Source of the DNA: Mytilus edulis
Taxonomy: Eukaryota
NCBI RefSeq assembly: GCF_963676685.1
Contig: NC_092356.1
Span: 72,602,001 to 72,666,000, forward strand
Reading direction: 5' to 3'
Length of the DNA stretch: 64,000 nt
A program made the position numbers and the translations under genes. The notes under the pieces are model-generated. The model saw only the letters and a list, made by a program, of their open reading frames with translations, did no database searches and was not told where the DNA came from. Shown here piece by piece: positions 2,553-64,000 of this stretch; the first letter of the stretch is position 1, and each line of letters opens with the position of its first letter.

Positions 2553-2940
2553 ATTTTTATAGTTCGTTCTTATGTTGTACTGTTATACCACTGTCCCAGG
2601 TTAGGGGGAGGGTTGGGATCCCGCTAACATGTTTAATTCCGCCACATTATTTATGTATGTGCCTGTCCTAAGTCAGGAGCCTGTAATTCAGTGGTTGTCG
2701 CTTGTTATGTGTTACATATTTGCTTGTCGTTCATTTTTTTTTACATAAATAAGGCCGTAAGTTTTCTCGTTTGAATTGTTTTACATTGTCTTATCGGGAC
2801 CTTTTATAGCTGAATATGCGATATGGGCTTTGCTCATTGTTGAAGGCCGTACGGTGACATAAACTTGTAAATGTCTGTTATTTTGGTCTTTTGTGGACAG
2901 TTGTCTCATTGGCAATCATACCACATCTTCTTTTTTATAT
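2553..2940 (+). mobile_element. Short interspersed repeat family A (twister-module carrier)
   Basis: Highly similar to 61764-62200 and ends in ttggcaatcataccacatcttcttttt. Confidence 0.85.
2588..2694 (+). ncRNA. Putative P5-type twister ribozyme (repeat family A)
   Basis: CCACUG..CAGGUU-A-GGGG-GAGGG-UUGGGAUCCCGCUAACAUGUU-UAA-UUCC-GCC-(P3 CACAU..AUGUG)-CCUGUCCUAAGUCAGG-A-GCCUG..CAGUGG. P2 has two G-U wobbles. Predicted cleavage 2634/2635. Confidence 0.65.
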
Positions 2941-5900
2941 ATACCTTTTTTTAAATTGAAGATTTTTTGAATGCTTGTTGGGTGCCACCAATTACATTAT
3001 ATACAAATCAACTAATACTGTTCGACTTACTTCGGGAAAATGAATGAGGGCAAAAGTAGTATACCGCTGTTTAAATGTCATAAATCGATTAAGAGAAGAA
3101 AAAAATCAGGTCACAAACTAAATACGATGATATACATCAACTATAAGGGAAAATAACAGAAACACAATGAGCTAACTACATCATTGTCCTTATTTATTTT
3201 ATGCAATTACTTTTATAAATGTGTATAAATTGTTCTAATAAATCAACTTCTATACATTTTATTTTTTTGTACGTTAGTTTATAAACTTTGTTTTCTGCAC
3301 ATAATTGTAGATAACTATTTGTAGCAAATATTTATAATAGAAATACCAATAACTAAAAATGTTCATCTACATTCCCAAAAAACAACCATTGTAGAAAATG
3401 AAATGTTCAATGTTCTTTCTTTTGTATTCGTTTGTAGCTAGAATTTCAATGTCGATTACTATCTGAATTGTTAAGCCTTATAATAGTTATTGGTAATCTT
3501 ACCATTCCTCTGCAAAAATGTAGCTTATAAGACATGAAAATTTATCAATCTGTTATTGAAGTACATTATAACATCATTATAACATCATTTATATGAAATC
3601 CATTTAAACGTAGGTTGACCAAGACAAACTTTCATATCGGCAATCATAATAAACCATATATATAATGCTAAAAGTCACGTAGATAATTAATATCCTAAAT
3701 TGTCGTAAAATATCTAGAACTTTATAGATTTATAAAAAGTAAGATTACAAGGGTCGTCGAACTACATCCTGTTCGAAATCAGCTCCAGTTAAACTCAGCA
3801 TTATCCTTAAAATTCGTAGATTATTGCTTTATTCGTGTTATTTTACAATTTAGTATTAAAACAACTAAAACATCTATGAAATGATTTTGATGTGTTTCCC
3901 TCAGTTTTAGTTTGTAACCCGGATTGGTTTTTTTCTAAATCGATTTTTTATTTTCAATCAGCGGAATATTACTGTTGCCTTTATTATTTTTTTTGAAAAA
4001 GTAAATTTATTGCATTTACGCAATACCAAAGCAAAATATTAACTCATATATATTTAATGACTCTAATTTTACCATACACAAAGTATAGTTGAATGCTTTG
4101 TAAATAACACATGCCCAGTAATAAGTAAATAGACTTATTGTTGATACCTGCTGTTTACAATTACCCAAAATAAAAAACTGACTTTGTCATTAAATCGTTA
4201 TGTTTTGTTTTCATCCCATGTAAACCAAGCTTTGCACACAAAGGAGGAACTTGTAAATGCGTAGATAACAATGTACTAGTAGTATGACAATTTACTAGTG
4301 ATATGGCAATGTACTTGCATGATATGCTTCAACATCGTTTTAAGGCTTTGTTTGTTTTGATCTTGTTATCATCTTAGATTTAATGTTTGATAATTAGTTT
4401 ATAACATAATGAACAAAAGCTGTAAGAATTATAATATAATTTATAACACGTGACTTGACGTTTGTCTGATGGAGATAATTAGACGAACATTCTTCTGACG
4501 ATCAGTTTTATTCCTATTGTAATTAGTTAGTAACATTTCTATCAAAGAAATATGCATTTTATATGAAGAGCGAAGCTTATTCGATACATTATCTAACAAT
4601 CGCAAAAAATGTATTTCTGGTAGTTGGGCTAAATATTACCAAATTTTAGAAAACTTGCAAATGAAGAAAAGAACAATATAAAACAGTAACAAACAATGTG
4701 GCGAAAAAGTAATAAGTGATATGTGCATTGAGAGTATAACATATTTAACGGTTCCATGTCACACTTGTATTCAAACATCAAAGGGCAACAATAGGATCGA
4801 TTGAAAGCTCAACGCAGAACGACAAAATGCGTGTCATTACCATACAACATGTCATCCTGTAGGTCAATTTGTTTTAGAAATGCGCAGACGCGGTGCCTTC
4901 TTTTAAATTTATACAGCAATTATGCATAAAGTACCAGAAAAATATTGCAAGTGAATTTGTCAAATCAGAACAAGTAAAATAGGACCAATACTTGATTTAA
5001 AAAAATTTCAAACTACTTCTCATTATATATAATCGCATTTTAAAAATTCTTTCTAGTTGATGAAAAAAAAAATTAACGAAAAGATGAGACGCCTCAATCA
5101 ATAACATAATCAAATTTTGATATAGTTAAATGCAGGGCTGAAAACTTGTCATTATTCAATTTTCAGGCTGTCTTGTTGCCATCCTTTTAAATAAGCTTTT
5201 GAAATACAAGAATGACAAACAAATATCCGGACATGACTATTTTACCTTTATCTATAAATAAGCAAATATAAAAACATCAAAATAACTAAACTCAAAGGAA
5301 AATTCAAAAAGTTACATCCCTAATCGAATGTCAAAATCAAAATACAAAAACGAATGGGAAAGAACTGTCACATCCCTGGCTTAGTACAGGCGTTTCCGTA
5401 TGCAAAAAATTGTTTTATAGGTAGCAAAACATCGTCCTTGAATTACAGACGCATTGTCACAGAGTAAACAGACGTTGTTCAAAAACTGACCTAGCTACTT
5501 GGCTGATGAAACATTTTGGACTAAATATACGGAAACATCTACACTGACCAAATGACGGTGAATACGATAGTAAATGTCAAAGAGCATATCACGTGTTAAC
5601 GAAACAACTTGGTATCTGACATAAATACCGAAGTCTGTATTTAGATAACCATCTCACAGAACCGATATTTCTTAGAAATACTTGATTTATATATCATGAT
5701 ATGCGTAATTAAATTGGTGCCTTATATAGAAATATTATAGATAGTCCCCGTTAATTCACTTTTGTTCATAAAGGAATGTCTGAACAGAATGTTTTGACAT
5801 TTCAAATTGAATGGATTTCAAACTTTTAAAGATGTAATTTTCTGAATGCAAGAATGACACACGTTTTATTGACATTGTGATAATTGAATTCTACTTATGT

Positions 5901-20930: not shown

Positions 20931-21600
20931 AACATGTTCTTGGATTAATTTGCACTTCTCATAAGTGCAAATTGGAACCACACTTTTTTTTGTCGTAGAA
21001 TCATCAAATTTGGCAATAATGTACCTCTGGGGATAAATAACACAATACAAAAATAAATTTGATATGGCTCGCCCGGTTCGGCAACTGGAGCGAAAACAGT
21101 GACAAAATCCTGTAGGATATTTTTTTCTCCCATAGGATTTTTAAAAATCCTACAGGATTTTGAGAAATCCTATAGGATAAAGTCATAATCCCGTAGGATA
21201 TTTTAAATATCCTATGGGATATATAAATCCTATCGGATTTATTTATCCTATAGGAAAATTTATCTCCTATGGGATTAAATTAATATCCTATGGGATTTAA
21301 AATCCTGTAGGATTTTCAAAAAAAGTGTTAAATCCGATAGGATTTTTTTTATCCTATAGGATTATCATGAAAGACTTTTTGACAGAAACTAATGTCCCTT
21401 AGGATATTTTTTTCTCCTAAGGGATTTATTTTGTCCTGTGGGATGTTTTTTTCTCCCATGGGATATTTTTTTCTCCTACCGGATTTTTTTCTCTCCCTTA
21501 GGATAAATTTTGTCCTGTAAGATATTTTGTTTTCCCTTAGGATTAACTTTGTCCTATAGGATTATTTTTTCTCCCATAGGATTAAATTTTGATACATTTT
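20931..21600 (+). repeat. Left arm of a long inverted repeat (conserved outer ~270 bp plus an inner array of palindromic ATCCTATAGGAT-like motifs)
   Basis: 20931-21200 is the near-exact reverse complement of 37120-37389, and the same translated text appears in both ORF-track entries. The inner region is a degenerate CCY(A/T)(T/A)RGG array. Confidence 0.85.
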
Positions 21601-36624: not shown

Positions 36625-37389
36625 ATTTTTCTCTAAGATATTTCATTCTCCCATAGGATATTTGTTTCTCCTATAGGATATTTATTTCTCCTATAGGATA
36701 TTTCTTTCTCCCATAGGATTTTTTTTCTCTCTTATGAGTTGCTTTGATCTCCCATAGGATTTTTAATCTCCCTTAGGATTTTTAATCTCCCTTAGGATTT
36801 TTAATCTCCCTTAGGATTTATTTATTACCCTTAGGATTTATTTATTACCCTTAGGATTCTTTTTTATCCCACAGGATATTTTTTTCTGTTATGAAATCCC
36901 TTAGGATATTTATTAATCCTATCGGATATTTTTAATCCCATGGGATTATTTTATTAGACTAATATCCTGTAGGATAAAAAATATCCTATAGGAAATGCTT
37001 TTATTTTTCCTAAGGGATTTTTTTAATCCTAAGGGCGAAACTATATCCTATAGGATATTTTTATTCTCCTAAGGGATTATAAATCCCTTAGGATTTAAAT
37101 ATCCTGTAGGATATAAAAAATATCCTATGGGATTATGACTTTATCCTATAGGATTTCTCAAAATCCTGTAGGATTTTTAAAAATCCTATGGGAGAAAAAA
37201 ATATCCTACAGGATTTTGTCACTATTTTCACTCCAGTTGCCGAACCGGGCGAGCCACACCAATTTTTTTTTGTATTGTGTTATTTATCCCCAGAGGTACA
37301 TTATTGCCAAATTTGATGATTCTACGACAAAAAAAAGTGCGGTTCCAATTTGCACTTATGAGAAGTGCAAATTAATCCAAGAACATGTT
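36625..37389 (-). repeat. Right arm of the long inverted repeat
   Basis: Mirror of 20931-21600. CTGA lies directly outside both arms. Confidence 0.85.
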
Positions 37390-39639: not shown

Positions 39640-39900
39640 GTAAGATATGTCATTTTAATAAATTTCCTGTTACAAAACTTTTAATTTTTCGAAAAACTAA
39701 GGATTTTCTTGTCCCAGGCATAGATTACCTTAGCCGTATTTGGCACAACTTTTTGGAAAAATTTGGATCCTCAATGCTCTTCAACTTTGTAATTGTTTGG
39801 CTTTATAAATATTTTGATATGAGCGTCACTGATGAGTCTTATGAAGACGAAACGCGCGTCTGGCGTATAAAATTATAATTCTGGTACCTTTGATAACTAT
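39640..39900 (+). mobile_element. Hammerhead-bearing retrozyme unit (5'-truncated)
   Basis: Family body (ttcgaaaaactaagga..ttggcacaac..tcctcaatgctcttcaac), then the intact hammerhead, then the ggtacctttgataactat end. Confidence 0.8.
39821..39867 (+). ncRNA. Minimal type I hammerhead ribozyme, intact core
   Basis: GAGCGUCA-CUGAUGA-GUCUU AUG AAGAC-GAAA-CGCGCG-UC^UGGCGUA. Stem I GCGUCA/UGGCGU, stem II GUCUU/AAGAC, palindromic stem III ACGCGCGU. GUC cleavage after 39860. Confidence 0.85.
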
Positions 39901-40198
39901 ACATGTATTTATCAACAGTATATGTATTGATCGTAGTGTGTCAAATAGTTAACAGCTTTGTAAGATATGTTCTTTCTACACATGTATTTATCAATAGTAT
40001 ATGTATTGATCGTAGTGTGTCAAATAGTTAACAGCTTTGTAAGATATGTCCTTTCTACACATGTATTTATCAATAGTATATGTATTGATTGTAGTGTGTC
40101 AAATAGTTAACAGCTTTGTAAGATATGTCCTTTCTACACATGTATTTATCAATAGTATATGTATTGATCGTAGTGTGTCAAATAGTTAACAGCTTTGT
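39901..40198. repeat. 79-bp tandem repeat, ~3.8 copies
   Basis: acatgtatttatcaa.agtatatg.. at 39901, 39980, 40059 and 40138. Confidence 0.95.
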
Positions 40199-41419
40199 GT
40201 TATTCTATGTTTAACATTATAAAAAGAAGAAAATCAGAAAATAAGTGTTTTCTGTGAATTAAAATTGTGAAGTCAATCAAATGTCGTTATGGTTTGCTTT
40301 ATTGGCCTTTGTTTTGTTCCGTTAATTGATTCTTTTCTTATTGGTAGTCTTTGTAAAATATTTCCCGCAGCATTCTATGTACTTAATCTGTTCTGTCTTC
40401 TTGTATTAGATGTAATCCTATTAATTACATCCCTCGCAATAATTTCTTAAAGCCGGTTTATCCTAAGGGACTAATTTGACATTCGATATTCCAATTATAG
40501 TAATAATAAAAACTAATGCAACTCCTTTCAGCGCCGTAGTGCATTACTTTCATGTCAGTGATGTTACTCCAGTGTACCAGTCCATGAGTTTCTAAGTGTT
40601 CTTATTGTAAATTAATTTATAAAAAAAAATCGTGATTTGAGTAGGAGTATTTTATTAACCCTTGTCTCCTCAGACTGGACATTTATCGAATGTTAGATAT
40701 CGTTTATTTAAAATATAATTGCTTAGCGTTTTTAATTAAATTGGATAAAATTGACAATCACGATTAATTATTAAAGGTTCACACTTCAGATAACAACTTC
40801 CGATAGCACCTGAATTCCCTGTAGTTTACATTTATTTCAATATAAAATAAATAAACAATTTTGAAACTGGTTACACACATTAACCAAATTCTACTGAAAT
40901 ATTTCTAATATGCATTTAACATATAACTACACGATTTGTGAGTTAAAAATGAAAAAGGTTGAATCTTTTTTTCTTCATTTCCTCGCCATTAAAGATATAG
41001 AAATGTTTTACTCATACTCCTTCGGGACACAATTAAAATTGCCAAAGTGTCCTATGCAGCTTATTAGTTATCTCAATAACTACACTCAATAAGCGACTGA
41101 ATATTTTCTATTTCACTGGTAATACTATTCTGCTGTGTTTTGTCATTGGTACTCATCGTTTTAATCTTAGTTAATTGATACAGGTTGTCACCCTTTGAGT
41201 GATCTTAGATGTCATATTTAATATCTTTACAATGATCTGACATTTAAAGACCTGCGGTCATAAAACTTTTGAGTCAGTTTTTTATACTCATACTCGAAAA
41301 TCAACCAATCAAAATGTTGGATTTCATGTTTCAAGCATTTTGATTGTGCTCCGAGCACTGAGCAAAGATTTATGACTTCAATCCCAGACAATAATCTGAC
41401 ATTTAGTGACCATTATTTA

Positions 41420-41837
41420 TTTTCTTTTGTTACATCTTTTGACATCAGACTCGGACTTCTCTTGAACTGAATTTTAATGTGCGTATTGTTATTCTTTTAC
41501 TTTTCTACATTGGCTAGAGGTATAGGGGGAGGGTTGAGATCTCATAAACATGTTTAACCCCGCCGCAATTTTGCGCCTGTCCCAAGTCAGGAGCCTCTGA
41601 CCTTTGTTAGTCTTGTATGATTTTAAATTTTAGTTTCTTGTGTATAATTCGGAGTTTAGTATGACGTCCATTATCACTGTACTATTATGCATATTTTAGG
41701 GGCCAGCTGAAGGACACCTACGGGTGCGGGAATTCTCGCTACATTGAAGACCCATTGGTTGCCTTCGGCTGTTGTTTGCTCTATGGTCGGGTGGTTGTCG
41801 CTTTGACATATTCACCATTTCCTTTCTCAATTTTATG
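41420..41837 (+). mobile_element. Short interspersed repeat family B (twister-module carrier)
   Basis: Shares only the central module with family A. Its 3' part (ggggccagctga..ggtcgggtggttgtc..ccatttcc.ttctcaatttt) recurs on the minus strand at 13660-13860, 56517-56685 and 61588-61763. Confidence 0.8.
41516..41598 (+). ncRNA. Putative twister ribozyme, circularly permuted (P5-type), best-preserved copy (repeat family B)
   Basis: Order: P5 AGAGGU - A - GGGG (P2') - GAGGG - [UUGAGAUCUCAUAAACAUGUU] - UAA - CCCC (P2) - GCC - P3 hairpin (CGCAA-UU-UUGCG) - CCUGUCCCAAGUCAGG (P4/L4) - A - GCCUCU (P5'). This matches the twister core motifs UAA/GCC/GUCCCAAGY/GAGGG. Predicted cleavage U41555/A41556. 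Confidence 0.72.
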
Positions 41838-45313: not shown

Positions 45314-45672
45314 GGGAATTCATTGTTTGAGTGGACTTTCAACCATGTGTTTGAGTGGAATCGTATGGTTATTGACCTAATTTAGGGAATCATTGTTTGA
45401 GTGGACTTTCAACCATGTGTATGGGTGGAATCGTATGGTTATTGACCTACTTTAGGGAATTCATTTTTTGAGTGGGCTCTCAACCATGTGTATGGGTGGA
45501 ATCGTATGGTTATTGACCTACTTTAGGGAATTCATTGTTTGAGTGGGCTTTCAACCATGTGTAAGAGTGGAATCGTATGGTTATTGACCTACTTTAGGGA
45601 ATTCATTGTTTGATTGGGCTTTCAACCATATGTATGAGGGGAATCGTATGGTTATTGACCTCCTTGAGGGAA
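45314..45672. repeat. ~71-bp tandem repeat, 5 copies
   Basis: gggaattcattgtttgagtgg.. at 45314, 45385, 45455, 45526 and 45597. Confidence 0.95.
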
Positions 45673-45742: not shown

Positions 45743-46026
45743 CAGGGTATAGTTTGACATGAATATCATAATGTGGTAATTTTTATAACTTTCCAATTTA
45801 AAAAACTTTGAATTTTTCGAAAAACTAAGGATAATCTTATCCAGTCAAAGATTACCTTAGTCGTATTTGGCACAACTTTTTGGAATTTTGGATCCTCAAT
45901 GCTCTTCAACCTTGTACTTGTTTGGCTTTATAAGTATGTTGATATGAGCGTCACTTATGAGTCTTATGTAGACTAAACGCGCGTCTGGCGTACTAAATTA
46001 TAATACTGGTACCTTTGATAACTATT
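45743..46026 (+). mobile_element. Retrozyme unit with inactivated hammerhead
   Basis: High similarity to 39640-39900. The core at 45946-45992 reads CUUAUGA and UAAA (G5 and G12 mutated). Confidence 0.75.
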
Positions 46027-46835: not shown

Positions 46836-47140
46836 AAAAAAAATCATCACGAAAGTACTGAATTACGAGGAAAATTCAATCGTAAAGTCCCTAATCAAAT
46901 TGCAAAATCAAATGACAAAACACATTACACGAATGGACAACAACTGTCATATTCCTGACTTGGTACAGGCATTTTTAAATGTAGAAAATAGTGGATTGGA
47001 CCTGGTTTTATAGCGCTAAACCTTTCACTTATATGACAGTTGCATCAAATTCCGTTATATTTGCAACGATGCGTGAACAAAACAGACATAATAAACAAAA
47101 GTCAAAATATGGGTATAGCAGTCAACACTGTGTTACTATC
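46836..47140 (-). mobile_element. Short interspersed repeat family C
   Basis: aaatcacaaaaatactgaact.cgaggaaaattcaaa..cctgacttggtacaggca. Other copies: ~5265-5480, 7836-7910, 15665-15745, 43280-43392, 50805-50865, 52280-52460, 53500-53660, 58512-58970. Confidence 0.75.
46943..47040 (-). ncRNA. Twister-like variant module (repeat family C), probably degenerate
   Basis: The minus strand reads ACUGUCAUAU..GUGAAAGGU-UUAGCGCUA..CCAGGUCCAAUCCAC-(P3 AUUUU..AAAAU)-GCCUGUACCAAGUCAGG-A-AUAUGACAGU, with a perfect 10-bp closing stem. GAGGU is mutated in this copy but present in the 58840-58935 copy. Confidence 0.45.
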
Positions 47141-47776: not shown

Positions 47777-48130
47777 TGTTGTAATACCACCTACGTTAAC
47801 GATGTAGTGTTGGCTTTTTATGGCTTTGTCACTGCACGGACAGTGTAATACCACCTACGTTAACGATGTAGTCTTGGCTTTTTATGGCTTTGTCACTGCA
47901 CGGACAGTGTAATACCACCTACGTTAACGATGTAGTGTTGGCTTTTTATGGCTTTGTCACTGCACGGACAGAAGTTTGATGTTGTAATACCACCTACGTT
48001 AACGATGTAGTCTTGGCTTTTTATGGGCTGTCACTGCACGGACAGAAGTTTGATGTTGTAATACCACCTACGTTAACGATGTAGTCTTGGCTTTTTATGG
48101 CTTTGTCACTGCACGGACAGAAGTTTGATG
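47777..48130. repeat. 64-77-bp tandem repeat, 5 copies
   Basis: tgtaataccacctacgttaacgatgtagt..cactgcacggacag; later units carry an extra aagtttgatgt. Confidence 0.95.
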
Positions 48131-48730: not shown

Positions 48731-49070
48731 ATAGTTATCAAAGGTTCCAGGATTATAATTTAGCACGCCAGACGCGCGTTTCGTCTACACAAAACTCATC
48801 AATGACGCTCATATCAAAATATTTATAAAGCCAAACAAGTACAAAGTAGAAAAGCCTTTAGGATCCAAAAAAAGTTGTGTCAAATACGGCTAAGGTAATC
48901 TATGCCTGGGATAAGACAATTCTTAGTTTATTCGAAAAATTCAAAGTTTCGTAACAGGAAATTTATAAAAATGACCACATTATTGATATTCATGTCAACA
49001 CCAAAGTTTTGACAACTGGGCTGTTGATACCCTCGGGGACGAAACGTCCACCAGCAGTATTATCGATCCA
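48731..49070 (-). mobile_element. Near full-length retrozyme unit (hammerhead C3 mutated) nested in a family A element
   Basis: The core on the minus strand at 48764-48810 reads UUGAUGA..GAAACGCGCGUC. The flanks rejoin to gtctgtcccaa|gtcaagaacc, the family A core. Confidence 0.75.
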
Positions 49071-51100: not shown

Positions 51101-54100
51101 AAACGATATGACTTCATAACTTTAAAACAAATAGCCAATTGTTTACCAGAATACAAATTGAAGTCAGAACGAAAGCTATAATTAGTAGTTATTGCTATAA
51201 TTGTTTTAGAACTGCTATATCATCTGTTAAGACATTTCTGTAGAGTCTTGAATAGCAGGTTAGTCGTTTCGTCTTTTACCGGGTCATTCTGACTGAGTCA
51301 GAATTCGCTTGTGGGAGGTGCATGTTAACTAGAAAACGCTTGTTGTGTCGTTGCATCCAGTCTCTTTTTGTTTGGTGGTTATATGAATCCCTTGATTTTT
51401 TGTTATCTTGATTTAAGATTTTAAATAAAGGCAACAGTACTAGTAGTATACCGATGTTCAAAACTCATAAATCGATAGAAAAAAAACCAAATCCGGGTCA
51501 CAAACCAAAACCGAGGGAAACGCATTTAATATAAAAGGAGAATGACGACACAACATTGACATATTGTAAACTCATGTCGCCTGTTTTTAAAACGTTCACG
51601 GTCGCATGTGCTAGTGCGGATATGTATGTACATAATTAAAAGTAGCTGAAACATTAAAGCATAAAGTTCAATTAGGAAAACTCGTAAAATCCTTTGTTAT
51701 TTCTTTTTCGGTAATGAAAATTAAGCAAACAAATTAAAGGCAACCCTAAATAACTCAATTGTGGCAATAAATGGTGACATAAGAAACTGTTAATTAATTA
51801 ATTATAAGTATTCAATTAACAAAAGATATTAATTGGATATTGATAAAAGAATGATTCCGACAATCAGTAAAACTGACATATTGATATACTGCAGATGATG
51901 ATAACATAGCAAAGATTTCTTAAGTCAGAAAGTGATATAACCTCGACATATAATAATAATTAAATGTAAGAAAAAAGGTTGGAAGGAAAGTACTTCAAAA
52001 TATATATAACTACAATTGATAAAAGCATCAATCATGTAGCAATATCAATAAAAAAGGAAAAGATTATTTTTTTAAACATAGCTTCTCAATTTTATATTCT
52101 TTTTACTGCAAATAAAATGTGTTTCTTGAGAAAAAAAACTTCACTTATGACTAATTCTGTAATAGTGTTTGTCAGAGGCTGCAGTACCATTGAACATTGT
52201 TTTACCTTTTATGTCTGTCAGTTTAACTTAGCCATTGCTGTCAATATATATGATATAGTGAAATAGTATGCGGATTTCATGCAAGTTAGCTGTTAAGCTA
52301 GCTTTAAAACTAGATGTAATCCACCATTTTTTACATATGGAAATGTCTGTACCAAGTTGTTTCTCATTCGTTTGATGTATTTGAGATCTTGATTTTTACA
52401 TTTTTAAAGAACTTTCACATATAAATTGGAGTACGTTTTTTTTTTGTTATTTTACTTTTTTATATATAATTATGGAAATATTTACGAAAAGTGACGAAAA
52501 TTCATTGTTGGGATCAGTTCTTATCTCCAAGAGACTAGAAATAATCTCTGTAATACTATCTAGATCAGTTATCAAAAATATGTAGCACAGTGCCTGTCAG
52601 AAGGTGTTCTACATTGGAACACCGTTTGTTGATTTTAAGTATTGGCCAGATATACCAATAGGGTAAAGATCATATGTGCTGATTCCATAGGCTATAACTA
52701 TCCCTCTTGAACTTGATATAGATTTATATTTTCACCGAATACAAATAAGAACCAGTAATAAAACATTCTAAAGAAATCCACTATATGTTTACATAGCATT
52801 ATGTACTTACTCCAGCGACGTTGAAAAATGATTAAATGTGCATCAGACAAAAATCAATACATGAATTCAAAACATTATATCAATCAATCATGCAAACATT
52901 TTAAAAGGTAAAATTATCCGATATCTGTAGCAAATACATTGTATATAGGAAACCGCAATACGCCCAATTGTATAGTTTTCTCAAATGAAAATGATACCAG
53001 ATATGTTGATGAATTATTATTTCAAATGCATATTGAAAGCAGGTACATTGAAAAATAACAAAACCCGAACCTTACCGTTGGTCGAACTTGTAAAAATCGG
53101 TAATTCCACGCTTTTGAATGCAATTCGAAATTTCGATTCGATTAAGTTGTCAAATGAAACCAATGACATGACATGTCATTTTTCTGATTTCAAATTCACA
53201 AGATGTTTAAGATATGAATCTACAGCGATTCCTGTTCCTGTATATAAAAACTGTGTTCAAAGTTAAAACCATAAACAATTAAGCAAATTAGTTGAAATGT
53301 TTTAGATTAAAGCAAACATGTACTATTATAAAGGTTTAAACATATAATATATAATCTTGGAAAACAAAATGAGTAAACAAAAGAAATAGTTAAATTATAT
53401 ACGAAATTGAACTTCATAAATGAATTTGAATTTAATTAGAGGCATCGCCATAATCTGCAAGGATACTTAATTGAAGTTGTAGATTAGGTGAATTGTGAAC
53501 AGCAAATAAAATCTCAAAAATACTCAACTCCGAAGAAAATTCAAAATGCAAAGTCCTTGATCAAATGTAAAAATCAAATGATTGAGCCTGCTTTTATAGC
53601 GCTAAACATCTCACTTATAAGACAGTCGCATAAAAGAATATAATATATTGACAACGATGCCAAGGTACAATATAGTTAATTAACGTGTTAAAAAAAAAGA
53701 TGATATGCATTATTTTTGGGATGGTTCTCTCAGACATATCTTCAACACTAAAGGGGGAAATATAAACAAATTAAAACAGAGTAAAACACAACATGCATTT
53801 TTATCTTCATAAAACATTAGTGTCAAAGAACCTAGTACAGTGGGAATCGACCATTTATATTCTACAAAGAGATAAACAACATTGATGTCGAAATAATTGT
53901 AATTTACCCAACAGCTTGCTCAAATTAAAATACTGTTTTGTCGCAAATAAAGTATGAATTGAAAAGGCAACAGTCATTTATTAACCAATAACGGCCAGTT
54001 TAAACGGTTTTAATGTGTTACTAAGGAACCATATAAAGTAGCAAATAGACATTAACTAATAACTATTGCCAATTTGTAACCATACACATGCCTTCAGTCA

Positions 54101-57337: not shown

Positions 57338-60300
57338 GTTTACTTACTAAAATATTCCACTTAACACCTTTCATTAAGAATTGCTTCACATAAGATATTG
57401 CTAAGGGATACTACTCGTATTGAAATATTAAATTGGCAGGCAATATCTTTAAGATATTTTATAATGTCAAAATAAAAATCCATCAACTATTAAACCATAA
57501 TGACATGAACGGTGGGAGGGTGGATGAGAGATAAAAATATTACAAATATAACTATCAGATGAGAGAAAAACAAAACACTTCACCAGATTGTGATTATGTT
57601 ATACTCCTGACTAAGCGGTACAAACAGTATCCTTTATTTTCAACCTTTAACATGTTTAATATATGCTTAGTAAGTCAATCAAGGTTAACAGATTCTTCTT
57701 CTAGTGCATATAAAGTGCCGGTTTTTTTTTTGAATCCATGCAATTTTAAACTTATAAAAATCATTGCTCAATTCTTTGTAAAAATACTTTTCAAAATATA
57801 AAACAACATACCTTTTATCGTTATAAAATATCAGCAGGCCATTAGTACGTAATTTAAATAAATGACTGGTAGTTAGTCGCACCTGTTCCAACCGATGCAT
57901 CTATTACAGTAATTGGACATCATTAGAAAACGCACCTGGCTATAAGTCGCAAAACCATGAAATATCCATTTATAAACAAGCTAGAACAATCTGACCAACA
58001 GACAATAATCATCTTTTACGGCTTCTGTTGTTAAATGACAAAAAAAGACAACTAATTAAGGATAGAATATGTCAACAACTCATCATTAGTAGAACTAATT
58101 TGTGCAGGATTGTTTGAAGAAGCCAATGACTTCCGAGAAAAGAACAAACTCAAAAACAGGAAAATTTATACCTTTCAGCTGCAAATACTAGAAATATAAA
58201 TCTGATGGCAAATGTGACATATTGATTAAGGAACCGTATCTTGTGTGCATTTTCTAAATCACATGACAAGAATGAAATCATCTAACCAGAAGACGGTACG
58301 TAATATATATGGAAGTACGAAATAAAAAAAATCGTCTTCTCATGATTTCTCTTAAATAGTTGAAATAAGGAGATGTGAAATGATTTCAATATAAAACAAG
58401 AAGAGCCCAAAGGTTGAAATTAATATAACTAGAAGACAATTTACGGAGTTATATAAAGATACAATATTTACAAGGTTCTTGGTAAATAAAGGCAAGATTA
58501 GTACATGTATAAAGTAAAATCACAAAAATACTGAACTCTGAGGAAATTTCGGAAAAGTTCCTCATCATATGACCAAATCAAAAGCTCAAAATCATCAAAC
58601 GAATGGATAAAAACTGTCATATTCTTGACTTGGTAAAGACAATTTCTTATGTAAAAATGTTTCACTTAGTATACCCGTGTTCAAAAGTCATAAATCGATT
58701 GAGAGAAACTAAATCTGGGTTACAACGTAAACCGAGGGAAAGTAAAATCACAAAAATACTGAAGTCCGAGGAAAATTCAAATCGTGAAGTCCCTAATGAA
58801 ATGGCAAAATCAAATGATAAAACAGATCAAACGAATGGACAACATATTCTTGACTTGGTACAGGCATTTTCAAATGTAGAAAATGATTGATGGATCCTAG
58901 TTTTATAGCGTTAAACCTCTCAATTCTTTGACAGTCGCATCAAATTCCGTTATATTTACAACGATGCGAAACACATCAACTATAAGAAAAAAACAAAGGA
59001 ACAACAGGAAATTAATATGCAACAAAAATAAACGCAAACATACATAGAAACGAACTATTTGATAACAACTGCTATATTCCTTCTTTTGAACTGAACATTT
59101 GAAAAAAAACATGGTAGGTTGGACCTGTTTTAATGGCTAGCCAAACCTACTGCTTTATGACAATGTTTAAAAAATATCGCTAAATGACAACACAAAGTTA
59201 CCGAAACACAGCACAACCACAAGCAAGAACATTCATCACAGAGAAACGCTCTGTTGACACAGCATGCAAACCGCAGAACAACAACGAATATATTCCACCA
59301 AAGACAAACACCACAGTATATTAAATACTAGTGTATTAAAATATATGTAAAAGTTTCCCTCTTCTGGTCAGTTTTTATCAGTTAAAAAAGGTTGGCCTGC
59401 CCAGTTTGGAAAATGGGGTTTCAATTAAGATTGCAGCAAGGTTTTTCAATCTAGAAAAAACAACAGTCTCTTGCAAAATATCTGAACGTTAGTGATGCCA
59501 ATAAACACTTAAACTTATCAAAGATTCAAAAATTGAGACAATAGCAAAAGTATAGGTAGTAACCAATACCTTCACTAAAATTAATTTGGGTCGTTTAATT
59601 TTATAAAACTTTGACAAAGTATTTACTTTGACCATTTGACAAAAACATAAAAATTTAAAAAAAAAATTATCCAACCAATTTATCAGAAGAATTACAATGG
59701 TTATATAGAAGTTATACAAACACTAATTATGATCATTGAGAAGCTTAATATTCCCTTTTAAAAAGAACACAACGTAATTATCACCCTGTAGTATTAGGTA
59801 CCATCTTAATTGGTTTTGACTAAGGTCATGGCAAATAATCCACTTGATTAGAATATTTTATTCTTTAAGTTATAAAAACATGTAACCCCATCTTGTTCTG
59901 TTCTTGTTCTCATATATTTGGTATACCAGTAGTGCGCATAACGTATAATGTTAACAACAACAAAAATCGTTTAACACAGTTTTCACTGTCTTGTGCTCTT
60001 CTTTGGCTTACGTGCAAGAACTTTATCTTATCAACTAATATTGAACACAAAGGGTTGATAATTACAGATATCATACTTTTTATTTCTTTAGTTTGTGAAG
60101 CAATCATTTTCTCTTCTGTTAAAATTGGAAAATTATACTAGAGATTAATCCATGTCAGTTAATAAAGCGCCAAGAAGAACGTGCATAGTTACTCAATATA
60201 GTTCATCATATCTCTGAAATAATTTAAGACGCTGTTGATTGTAATGGTTTTCAAATGTCAAATTATTTTCACTGAACGTTCCGTGTTATGAACATTTTAT

Positions 60301-62200: not shown

Positions 62201-62649
62201 TCATACTAAACCCAACATCATACTAAAATTAAAGTCGAAGAATTGAAGTTCATTTCGAGTCAGAGTTTACAACTAAGATGTTGCATTGTATTCATTAAAG
62301 CGTTGATTGCCTTAATTGGACTGAAAAACGCAATAGCACTTTTACATTTACCATCTTATTATATAAGATTGGTAATCTCCGTATTTTGTATTAAATCATT
62401 TGATCAAATAAGATTGCCCTACTTTAAATGTCGTAATAAACCTCCGCAATTTGTACCAAAAAATATGTTGTAATGTTATTATATTGAAGCACTAAATGTT
62501 CCATTTTTCGAAATTCCGAAAATTGACATTGTTGTTAATAAAGTTTTTAGTACAAACATTTAATTTAAATCTCATTTTTGAATTACTTTCTCAATCTCGG
62601 TTTATTTATGTTATCACACAAAATAAGAAACCAAGATTTGGAAAGTCTT

Positions 62650-64000
62650 TGCCTGTAAGGAGGTAGTTTGTCTGTCAGAAAGTAGTTTTGCTGTCAGAAA
62701 GTAATTTTGCTGTCAGAAAGTAGTTTTGCTGTCAGAAAGTATTTTCCTGTCAGAAAGTAGTTTTGCTGTCAAAAAGTATTTTCCTGTCAAGTTTGTCAGA
62801 GAGTATTTGCATGTTACCAGGAGCTTTTCATGTTAGAATTGTCAGAGATTATTTTGCATGCCTCAAAGTACTTTTAGGTCGAAGAGTACTTATCCCGTAG
62901 AAGAGTGTTTTGACTGTCCGCGAGTACTTTCGCCGTAAGATGGTAGTTTGCCTGTCGGACAGTATGTTTACTTTCATAAAGTACTATACAAGAAACTGAT
63001 AAAGCGTACCTGCCTGTCCAAGAGTACTTTTTCCATATGAGGATGTTAGGCTTTCAGAGAGTAATTTCCCCGTAAGAGACTATTTTGTCTTTCATAAAGT
63101 ATTTTTTCCGTAAGAAGGTATTTTGCCTGTTTGAGAGTACATTTTCGTAAGAGGGTATTTTGACTGTCAGCGAGTACTTTCCAAGTAAGATGGAATTTGC
63201 CTTTCAGAGAGTACTTTCCCCATAACTAGGTATTTTCCCTGTCAGAGAGTATTTCCCCGTAAAAGGGTATTTTGACTGTCAGCGAGTACTTTCCAAGTAA
63301 GATAGAATTATGCCTTTCAGAGAGTACTTTCCCCATAACTAGGTATTTTCCCTGTCAGAGAGTATTTCCCCGTAAGTGGGTATTTTGACTGTCAGCGAGT
63401 ACTTTCCAAGTAAGATTGAATTATGCCTTTCAGAGAGTACTTTCCCCATAACTAGGTATTTTCCCTGTCTGAGAGTATTTTCCCCGTAAGAGGGTATTTT
63501 GACTGTCAGCGAGTACTTTCCAAGTAAGATGGAATTATCATGCCTTTCAGAGAGTACTTTCCCCATAACTAGGTATTTTCCCTGTCAGAGAGTATTTTCC
63601 CCGTAAGAGGGTATTTTGACTGTCAGCGAGTACTTTCCAAGTAAGATGGAATTATCATGCCTTTCAGAGAGTACTTTCCCCATAACTAGGTATTTTCCCT
63701 GTCAGAGAGTATTTTCCCCGTAGGAGGGTATTTTGACTGTCAGCGAGTACTTTCCAAGTAAGATCGAATTATCATGCCTTTCAGAGAGTACTTTCCCCAT
63801 AACTAGGTATTTTCCCTGTCAGAGAGTATTTTCACAGTAAGAGTAGAAGAGTAATTTCCACGGAAGCGGGTATTTTGACTCACAGAGAGTACTTTCCACG
63901 GAAGCGGGTATTTTGACTCCCAGAGAGTACTTTCCACGGAAGCGGGTATTTTGACTCCCAGAGAGTACTTTCCACGGAAGCGGGTATTTTGACTCACAGA
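62650..64000. repeat. Satellite array with 19-bp monomers, 38-bp dimers and 112-117-bp higher-order units
   Basis: ctgtcagaaag has period 19 (62672, 62691, 62710). gactgtcagcgag recurs at 63162, 63274, 63387, 63501, 63618 and 63735. gaagcgggta has period 38 from ~63863 to the window end. Confidence 0.9.

Follow-up and report, generated by a model that had tools for sequence, protein, structure and literature searches.

Type-P5 twister ribozymes have their termini in P5 and contain P2, P3, P4, T1 and T2, together with a U/AA cleavage site and conserved G-A and A-A-G nucleotides (PMC5408937). The motif described here shares all these features and differs in having no P1 hairpin, the place of which is occupied by a 20-23-nt linker carrying two palindromes. 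The P1 stem is listed as essential in the twister consensus but has been shown to be dispensable in vitro, twisters without P1 being reported to cleave at almost the wild-type rate (PMC5408937). P1 imperfections had no effect on cleavage in a large set of natural twisters (PMC11662667), and cleavage in the absence of P1 has been described as inefficient but possible (PMC8501958). Truncated twisters have been found on RTE elements, and in the accessible parts of two papers RTE elements and bacteria are the only carriers with which twisters are connected (PMC7761336; PMC6765202). The T-variant twisters of the Perere-3 element of Schistosoma mansoni resemble the present motif in their weak or missing P1 and in their association with a retrotransposon, but they lie at the 5' end of an RTE-type LINE, where P1 is made by the target-site sequence; the words "dimer" and "palindrom" are absent from the available text of that study (PMC8501958). 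The motif studied here, in contrast, is internal to a 3' tail and P5-permuted, and its genomic copies do not start at the cut.

Penelope-like elements are known for their dimer-dependent, minimal type-I hammerheads, which form a domain-swapped dimer and lie in the pseudo-LTR region, with a palindrome making up the helix beside the cut (PMC4209133). The location of the ribozyme, the position of the palindrome and the dimer logic (which is predicted here from the sequence) are the same in our case, whereas the ribozyme class is another one, and two palindromes, with cores that would stay in cis, are present instead of one palindrome with a domain swap. The Naiads, a group of Penelope-like elements that dominate bivalve genomes, were reported to have no canonical hammerheads, an absence that was read as a hint that these elements may do without the ribozyme or that it may be a parasite (PMC8557442). 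The word "twister" is absent from the available text of that paper and one supplementary table, as well as from the accessible part of a 2026 retrozyme preprint. In the literature consulted, neither a twister in Penelope-like elements nor a dimeric natural twister was found, although a prior listing among natural twister candidates is possible; the Naiad tail motif, the like of which we have not found in print, is a new form of the twister, a known class, in a host new to it. Retroviruses and Ty1 carry palindromic dimer initiation sites by which two RNA copies pair. The Naiad words are likewise short and self-complementary, but they sit inside a ribozyme, at P1.

The window, i.e., the whole stretch of 64,000 nucleotides analyzed, contains copies of the motif belonging to several families, of which the family-B copy is set out in most detail (Table 1). 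Its linker is bounded by the T1 3' strand GGG on one side and by T41555 followed by AAC on the other, GAGGG (41529-41533) lies directly 5' of it, and palindrome Y ends one base 5' of the predicted cut. The G of the conserved G-A is presumably the general base, a role taken from the twister literature, and the numbering and residue roles used here follow the rice twister scheme. The tail copy has neither an ORF nor a SECIS element; longer genome copies of the same tail carry an RT ORF upstream.

Table 1. Positions of the twister motifs, their predicted parts and the hammerheads in the window.
Feature	Position	Strand	Basis or remark
Family-B element tail, 5'-truncated pseudo-LTR region	41413..41835	+	same extent as copies elsewhere in the genome, which share one 3' end and differ in their 5' ends
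P5 5' strand	41512..41520	+	pairs with 41594-41602; fold prediction; P5 paired in A, C, D, E despite changed sequence
P2 3' strand GGGG; conserved G-A; T1 3' strand GGG	41525-41528; 41529-41530; 41531-41533	+	anchored pairing
21-nt linker of type-P5 twister core, family B	41534-41554	+	Naiad-type 3' tail
Palindrome X, TGAGATCTCA	41535..41544	+	subfamily-specific; predicted copy-copy helix; homoduplex -15.6 kcal/mol
Palindrome Y, AACATGTT	41547..41554	+	second predicted copy-copy helix, -7.0 kcal/mol; variant AACTAGTT known
Predicted cleavage site U/AA	41555..41557 (cut 41555/41556)	+	homology to twister: U-A in UAA L1 loop
P2 5' strand; T2 5' strand; P3	41558-41561; 41562-41563; 41564-41575	+	anchored pairing
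P4 5' strand; T1 5' strand CCC, then AA; T2 3' strand; P4 3' strand	41576-41579; 41581-41583; 41586-41587; 41588-41591	+	
P5 3' strand	41594..41602	+	fold prediction and pairing in other families
Family A: X GGGATCCC (2615-2622), Y AACATGTT (2626-2633)	2615..2633	+	core intact
Family C: X TAGCGCTA, Y partly decayed	46999..47018	-	core intact
Family C, decayed	53597..53604	-	P4/L4 lost
Family D: X TGGCTAGCCA	59134..59143	-	decayed core
Family C, 10-mer subfamily, decayed	52295..52304	+	without GAGG and P4 3' half
Type-I hammerheads, palindrome ACGCGCGT	39823-39866	+	Rfam, below gathering score
	1192-1235	-	same
	48765-48808	-	same
	45948-45991	+	same

The first-pass annotation had proposed that P1 is replaced in every family by a different palindromic word located just after GAGG(G/U). 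All six words were found where it had placed them, those of the C and D copies at 47011, 53597 and 59134 being on the minus strand. GAGG(G/U) does not precede the word in the copies at 53597, 59134 and 52295, and these copies are not intact ribozymes, since the first two have no P4/L4 core and the third has neither GAGG nor the P4 3' half. The word AAGCTAGCTT, which had been listed beside those of families A to D, does not define a family of its own but belongs to the TAGCTAGCTA subfamily as one of its variants. The second word is palindromic (AACATGTT) in families A and B, as described; for families C and D, whose second word had been called near-palindromic, most of the genome copies listed read AACC-A-GGTT, which is an interrupted but perfect palindrome, and the window copy at 47011 has decayed to AACCAGGTC.

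The 186 copies that we anchored came from targeted loci, from 112 unselected 10-kb stretches and from the window itself; pairs were counted in 183 of them after three mis-anchored copies had been dropped. The pairs of P4, T1, T2 and P3 are kept in 160-180 of the 183 copies (P4 in 171-176, T1 in 171-180 and T2 in 170-173), rates that are partly due to construction where the part of the core used for anchoring, including P4, is concerned. The first two pairs of P2 occur in 167-168 copies, the third in 134 and the fourth in 113 of 139; in families C and D, P2 is shortened to 2-3 bp. Base-pair swaps are unaffected by the anchoring, and they were observed between families in T1 (C-G/A-U and C-G/U-A), T2 (G.U/A-U), P3 (C-G/U-A) and P2 (C-G/U-A). 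The N/AA at the cut, the G-A and the A-A-G loop nucleotides are present in the intact window copies, where they also served as anchors. P5 closes the fold in every family with a family-specific sequence, pairing being retained in A, C, D and E, and the permutation is therefore type P5. Since none of the Rfam twister models matched the window, either at the gathering score or at E<=10, the identification as a twister rests on the anchored pairing. The core proposed earlier for these tails thus pairs and covaries, and so does the absence of P1 hold: the would-be P1 pairs form in only 1, 4 and 43 of the 183 copies, the first of them being T.T in 182. An intramolecular P1 was ruled out by these unpaired positions and by the weak pairing of X with Y, which are not complementary within the same linker. 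The X and Y words fill the P1 slot in all families, beginning one or two bases past T1 and stopping one base before the cut. Judged from its sequence, the 3' tail motif is a type-P5 twister fold without P1, in which two self-complementary words are present instead.

Palindromy is maintained in both words across about ten amplified subfamilies while the letters change. The X words are GGGATCCC in family A, TGAGATCTCA in family B and TAGCGCTA, TAGCTAGCTA, TGGCTAGCCA or TGGCATGCCA in families C and D; the Y words are AACATGTT, AACGTT, AACCAGGTT (the AACC-A-GGTT form of families C and D) and AACTAGTT (eight genome matches). The central hexamer of X is fully palindromic in 151 of the 183 anchored copies; among 1488 control windows taken within these copies, 71 are palindromic, the copies being related and not independent. 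When single linkers were shuffled (3000 trials), both palindromes arose in 0-2.7% of the trials in the case of 13 of the 14 linkers, the 14th having a decayed Y. Among the 100 family E/F matches listed, the X core was counted by hand as GGATCC in 46, GGTACC in 34, GGGCCC in two, GGCGCC in one and other sequences in 17; within the GG-NN-CC frame, the four self-complementary centers thus account for 83 of the matches listed and the 12 other centers for four. The nearest variants are joined by seven double substitutions, all of them complementary (a chance of about 5e-4 if the second base is free among three and the events are assumed to be independent), and by several symmetric central indels. 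The claim that palindromy is kept though the sequence changes is thus borne out by compensatory double changes in both X and Y, genome-wide. When a tree is built on nothing but the flanks, the distribution of the words mostly follows the clades, and each change therefore corresponds to about one event, not to hundreds. The sole difference between the near-identical E subfamilies is an AT/TA center, and the sole linker site dividing two large groups of family B is an unpaired spacer base.

Single changes that break pairs were found in inserted copies, namely in 17 of the 100 family-E matches listed and in 10 of the 24 family-A copies. Since old insertions lose the pairs one change at a time, the constraint lies with the masters that amplify. 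The recurrent one-sided variants (GGGATCCT, AACGTGTT) mostly affect outer pairs or retain a G.U. Genome searches with family patterns, which may slightly overlap, gave 2150 matches for E/F, 12136 for C/D, 2659 for the A type and 7051 for B, and none with the reversed-pattern controls; over all families, the twister motif has more than 20,000 pattern matches. In sequencing runs under three organism labels, 73-97% of the sampled words of the family-B tail were recovered. We consider it likely that copy-copy pairing via X and Y is under selection.

The host was found by searching the genome with the B-linked ORF; a genome search with Pfam RVT_1 gave other retroelements. Family-B copies have a common fixed 3' end and differing 5' ends. 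An RT fragment lies at most 1.5 kb upstream on the same strand in 7 of 23 unselected family-B matches, and on the opposite strand in 1 of 23; in all eight loci picked for a long RT frame, the motif occurs about 290 nt past the stop codon. The family-B host protein shows a KR block and, upstream of the RT, CxC and DKA motifs, all read by eye. In all seven host copies, an in-frame TGA occurs eight residues past DKA (L151:4693-4695, for example), which is the place of the selenocysteine described for clam and spider Naiads (PMC8557442). A SECIS-like hairpin, detected by eye and by folding, lies between the stop codon and the twister (L151:6196-6265), upstream of the latter, and would thus remain with the ORF after cutting. 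GIY-YIG-like words were seen at the N-terminus of the L152 frame, where Pfam gave no families, and the C-terminal frame gave no RT match. In families E and A, the motif comes after RT ends that share 68-71% identity with the B protein at three loci; in families C and D the linkage with the RT is weak, partial RT matches being found upstream of 4 of the 27 targeted copies. The KR block, CxC, DKA, UGA eight residues past DKA, 5' truncation and partial tandems are all shared with the Naiads in the parts available of their description, to which the putative endonuclease-like region at the N-terminus may be added, the difference being the twister tail (PMC8557442). To go by its ORF and tail, the host of the twister is a Naiad-type Penelope-like element, so that the earlier comparison with the hammerheads of Penelope-like elements was an apt one.

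Tandem copies were found in L158 (575 nt apart) and L012, and three C copies occur 207 nt apart, but clear same-word tandem pairs number only two among the 186 anchored copies and most copies are solo. Three family-B motifs on one strand with a spacing of about 4750 nt (G000:C1:6233577, 6238326 and 6243076) possibly form a long-unit tandem array. Many copies of the 10-mer subfamily of family C (L249 and L260, for example) appear to have their 5' limit in common, where P5 starts, 74-77 nt upstream of the cut; this may reflect only where the reference copy begins. A second Naiad-like family, defined by the RT of L032, shows no twister and has a multi-way 3' fold drawn by eye (L032:6814-7100, L207, L194, L040, L206), with a covarying loop-loop contact (GGATCT:AGATC versus GGAAAT:ATTTC) and a covarying palindrome (CCACATGTGG versus CCGTATACGG; 7428 pattern matches). 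This fold is possibly another ribozyme or a pairing signal, and the motif was not found within the 64-kb window.

As regards the pairing energies, the linker alone has a minimum free energy of 0 in 10 of 14 variants and above -1.3 kcal/mol in 13. The X:X homoduplexes of the 14 variants are predicted at -12.4 to -19.4 kcal/mol and the Y:Y homoduplexes at -4.1 to -7.2 kcal/mol in 13 of them, the one with a decayed Y giving -2.4. The E1xE2 heteroduplex reaches -6.2 versus -13 for self-pairing; cross-subfamily duplexes are weaker in general, yet some amount to -10 to -13 (D1xD2, -12.9). Copy-copy pairing is the simplest reading, since AACGTT has no room for a loop and the central bases are self-complementary without a hairpin needing them to be. 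When nine copies were folded as whole motifs without constraint, the resulting fold was in every case more stable than the native-like nested one, by 4.2-9.8 kcal/mol, and occupied at least two of the three T1-strand bases with p>=0.55. Half of the summed X:X and Y:Y duplex energy amounts to 8.6-13.0 kcal/mol, from which the topological price of joining two closed loops through both helices would have to be met. The folding program leaves out the T1/T2 pseudoknots, loop costs and topology, and a canonical twister control is not among the folds; these energies therefore make gating possible and no more than that.

We accordingly put forward, with about as much confidence as doubt, a model in which P1 is replaced by two words that would pair between copies of the same subfamily, this pairing promoting cutting. 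In a lone RNA, the 20-23-nt linker would be nearly unstructured and would tie up the T1 strand in competing helices, which in family B would also hold the cleavage-site adenines. An encounter of two copies would let X:X and Y:Y form, which would free the linker from these helices; each core would thereby be closed in cis, a three-way junction taking the place of P1. With both words paired, strand connectivity places the T1 strand of each molecule beside its own cut site; since two separate palindromes cannot build one domain-swapped helix, we infer that each core stays in cis and that the dimer would be a kissing dimer. Cutting would be favored in tandem (pseudo-LTR) transcripts, giving unit-length RNA that could circularize, as proposed for the Penelope hammerheads, templates with only one copy would in part escape it, and differing X words would keep the subfamilies from cross-pairing. 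The wider proposal, namely a first natural dimer-gated twister with a two-helix kissing contact for P1, a code of subfamily words for self-recognition and palindromic sites that may be general in Penelope-like 3' ends (hammerhead, twister and a third fold), is one that we would hold only tentatively, as slightly more apt to fail than to stand.

In order to look for signs of cutting, four raw RNA-seq runs, three from one study (X21, X22 and X23) and one from a second study using random priming (X24), were mapped on the central family-B copy L123:2844-3203, in which the predicted cut lies at 2999/3000. This copy is covered by reads of both directions, as expected from read-through of scattered copies. 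Between 2989 and 3003, the first-mate-minus depth, which is that of sense RNA if the usual stranded protocol is assumed, rises from 219 to 351 in X21, from 336 to 453 in X22 and from 242 to 388 in X23, and the other direction is flat (405 to 414, 492 to 491 and 371 to 370, respectively). The rise across the predicted cut thus amounts to 35-60% on one strand in three of the four runs, all from one study, and X24 shows no step there (241 to 250 and 173 to 180). Between about a quarter and more than a third of the same-strand depth begins at the predicted cut, most same-strand reads spanning the site. No pile-up of read ends was found at the threshold at any single place in L123, and an earlier mapping in 41-nt bins gave only a dip in the strand ratio. 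On the opposite strand, a step of similar size (48-92 reads) occurs near 2928, away from any cut site, and 21-37 chimeric reads begin at 3010-3013. No back-joint at the cut, the sign of a circle, was listed in these fragmented RNA-seq data on a reference too short for a unit-length circle. Of 55 family-B genomic matches, none has its start in the interval from -89 to +22 relative to the cut, and truncated DNA copies are therefore an unlikely cause of the step. Genomic copies starting at the cut in the manner of Perere-3 were also looked for among 281 matches from six families and found no support, as there was no pile-up near 0. The depth step suggests, with moderate support, that cutting occurs at the predicted site; the same picture may arise from a promoter or other start site, from a stop of the reverse transcriptase or polymerase, or from cuts made while the library was prepared.

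Whether pairing gates the cut is where the readings diverge. Gating is weakened by the reported dispensability of P1, by the fact that the copies are mostly solo and by a geometry unlike the domain swap of the hammerheads; an RNA step in a mostly solo family also fits monomer cutting at least as well, which speaks against strict gating. It is possible, though we would not expect it, that the monomer twister cuts by itself and that the palindromes signal RNA dimerization in some other step of retrotransposition, where they would hold two templates or cut ends together, as the retroviral and Ty1 dimer initiation sites do, so that templates can be switched, ends ligated or particles assembled. 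The dispensability of P1 (PMC5408937; PMC11662667) and the step seen despite solo copies agree with such a signal, as does the position of X and Y, which after cutting would sit at the extreme 3' end of the ORF-bearing RNA. The twister-less Naiad-like family, with its different 3' fold and its covarying palindrome (CCACATGTGG/CCGTATACGG, 7428 pattern matches), also suggests that RNA pairing may matter apart from the twister. However, a signal of this kind does not account for the location of X and Y exactly at the P1 position in all families, the predicted monomer folds block T1 in nine of nine copies, and most same-strand reads still cross the cut site. For these reasons on both sides, a role of X/Y pairing in promoting cleavage seems to us to be evenly poised.

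The symmetry might also have another origin than selection for RNA pairing, since template switching is known to perfect quasi-palindromes. It is improbable in our opinion that the words are DNA or double-stranded sites for the element's protein, or products of template-switch mutagenesis. Each subfamily has its own RT-endonuclease, with which such a site could drift along, and the pairing of the palindromes is known here from sequence and predicted energies; but the inserted copies lose pairs singly (in the E and A counts given above), so that symmetry is not restored in DNA, and the near-identical E subfamilies differ only by their AT/TA center. The one-sided variants mostly spare inner pairs or keep G.U, an RNA-type tolerance, unless they are recurrent mutations. 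Finally, X and Y could be two small local hairpins standing in for P1 in the monomer, since an 8-10-nt palindrome can be drawn as a hairpin of 2-3 bp and L042 gives -3.4 kcal/mol. This is very improbable: the minimum free energy of the linker is 0 in most variants, AACGTT leaves no loop, and loops need no self-complementarity, yet the two central bases covary (AT, TA, GC, CG).

A twister in the place where other Penelope-like elements have their hammerhead, more than 20,000 pattern matches and signs of cutting argue that self-cleavage belongs to the cycle of Penelope-like elements, in which it would have been solved at least twice. If pairing does gate the cut, this would be a twister that senses copy number in nature and whose pairing words are orthogonal, which would make it useful for RNA switches; if it does not, X and Y would still be candidates for an RNA dimerization signal in a non-LTR element.

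The window also contains four type-I hammerheads (Table 1), two of which have core changes. The palindrome GAAACGCGCGTC that had been ascribed to all of them is present in three, the fourth reading TAAAC. The palindrome TCCTATAGGA is the basis of the 19-20-nt units that make up AT-rich arrays at 21050-21582 and 36628-37389; these arrays, with long inverted repeats 16 kb apart, are the source of miRNA-like Rfam matches. Tandem repeats were found at 62648-63999, 39897-40277, 45314-45668 and 47780-48130, their periods being about 38, 79, 71 and 64-75 nt, respectively.
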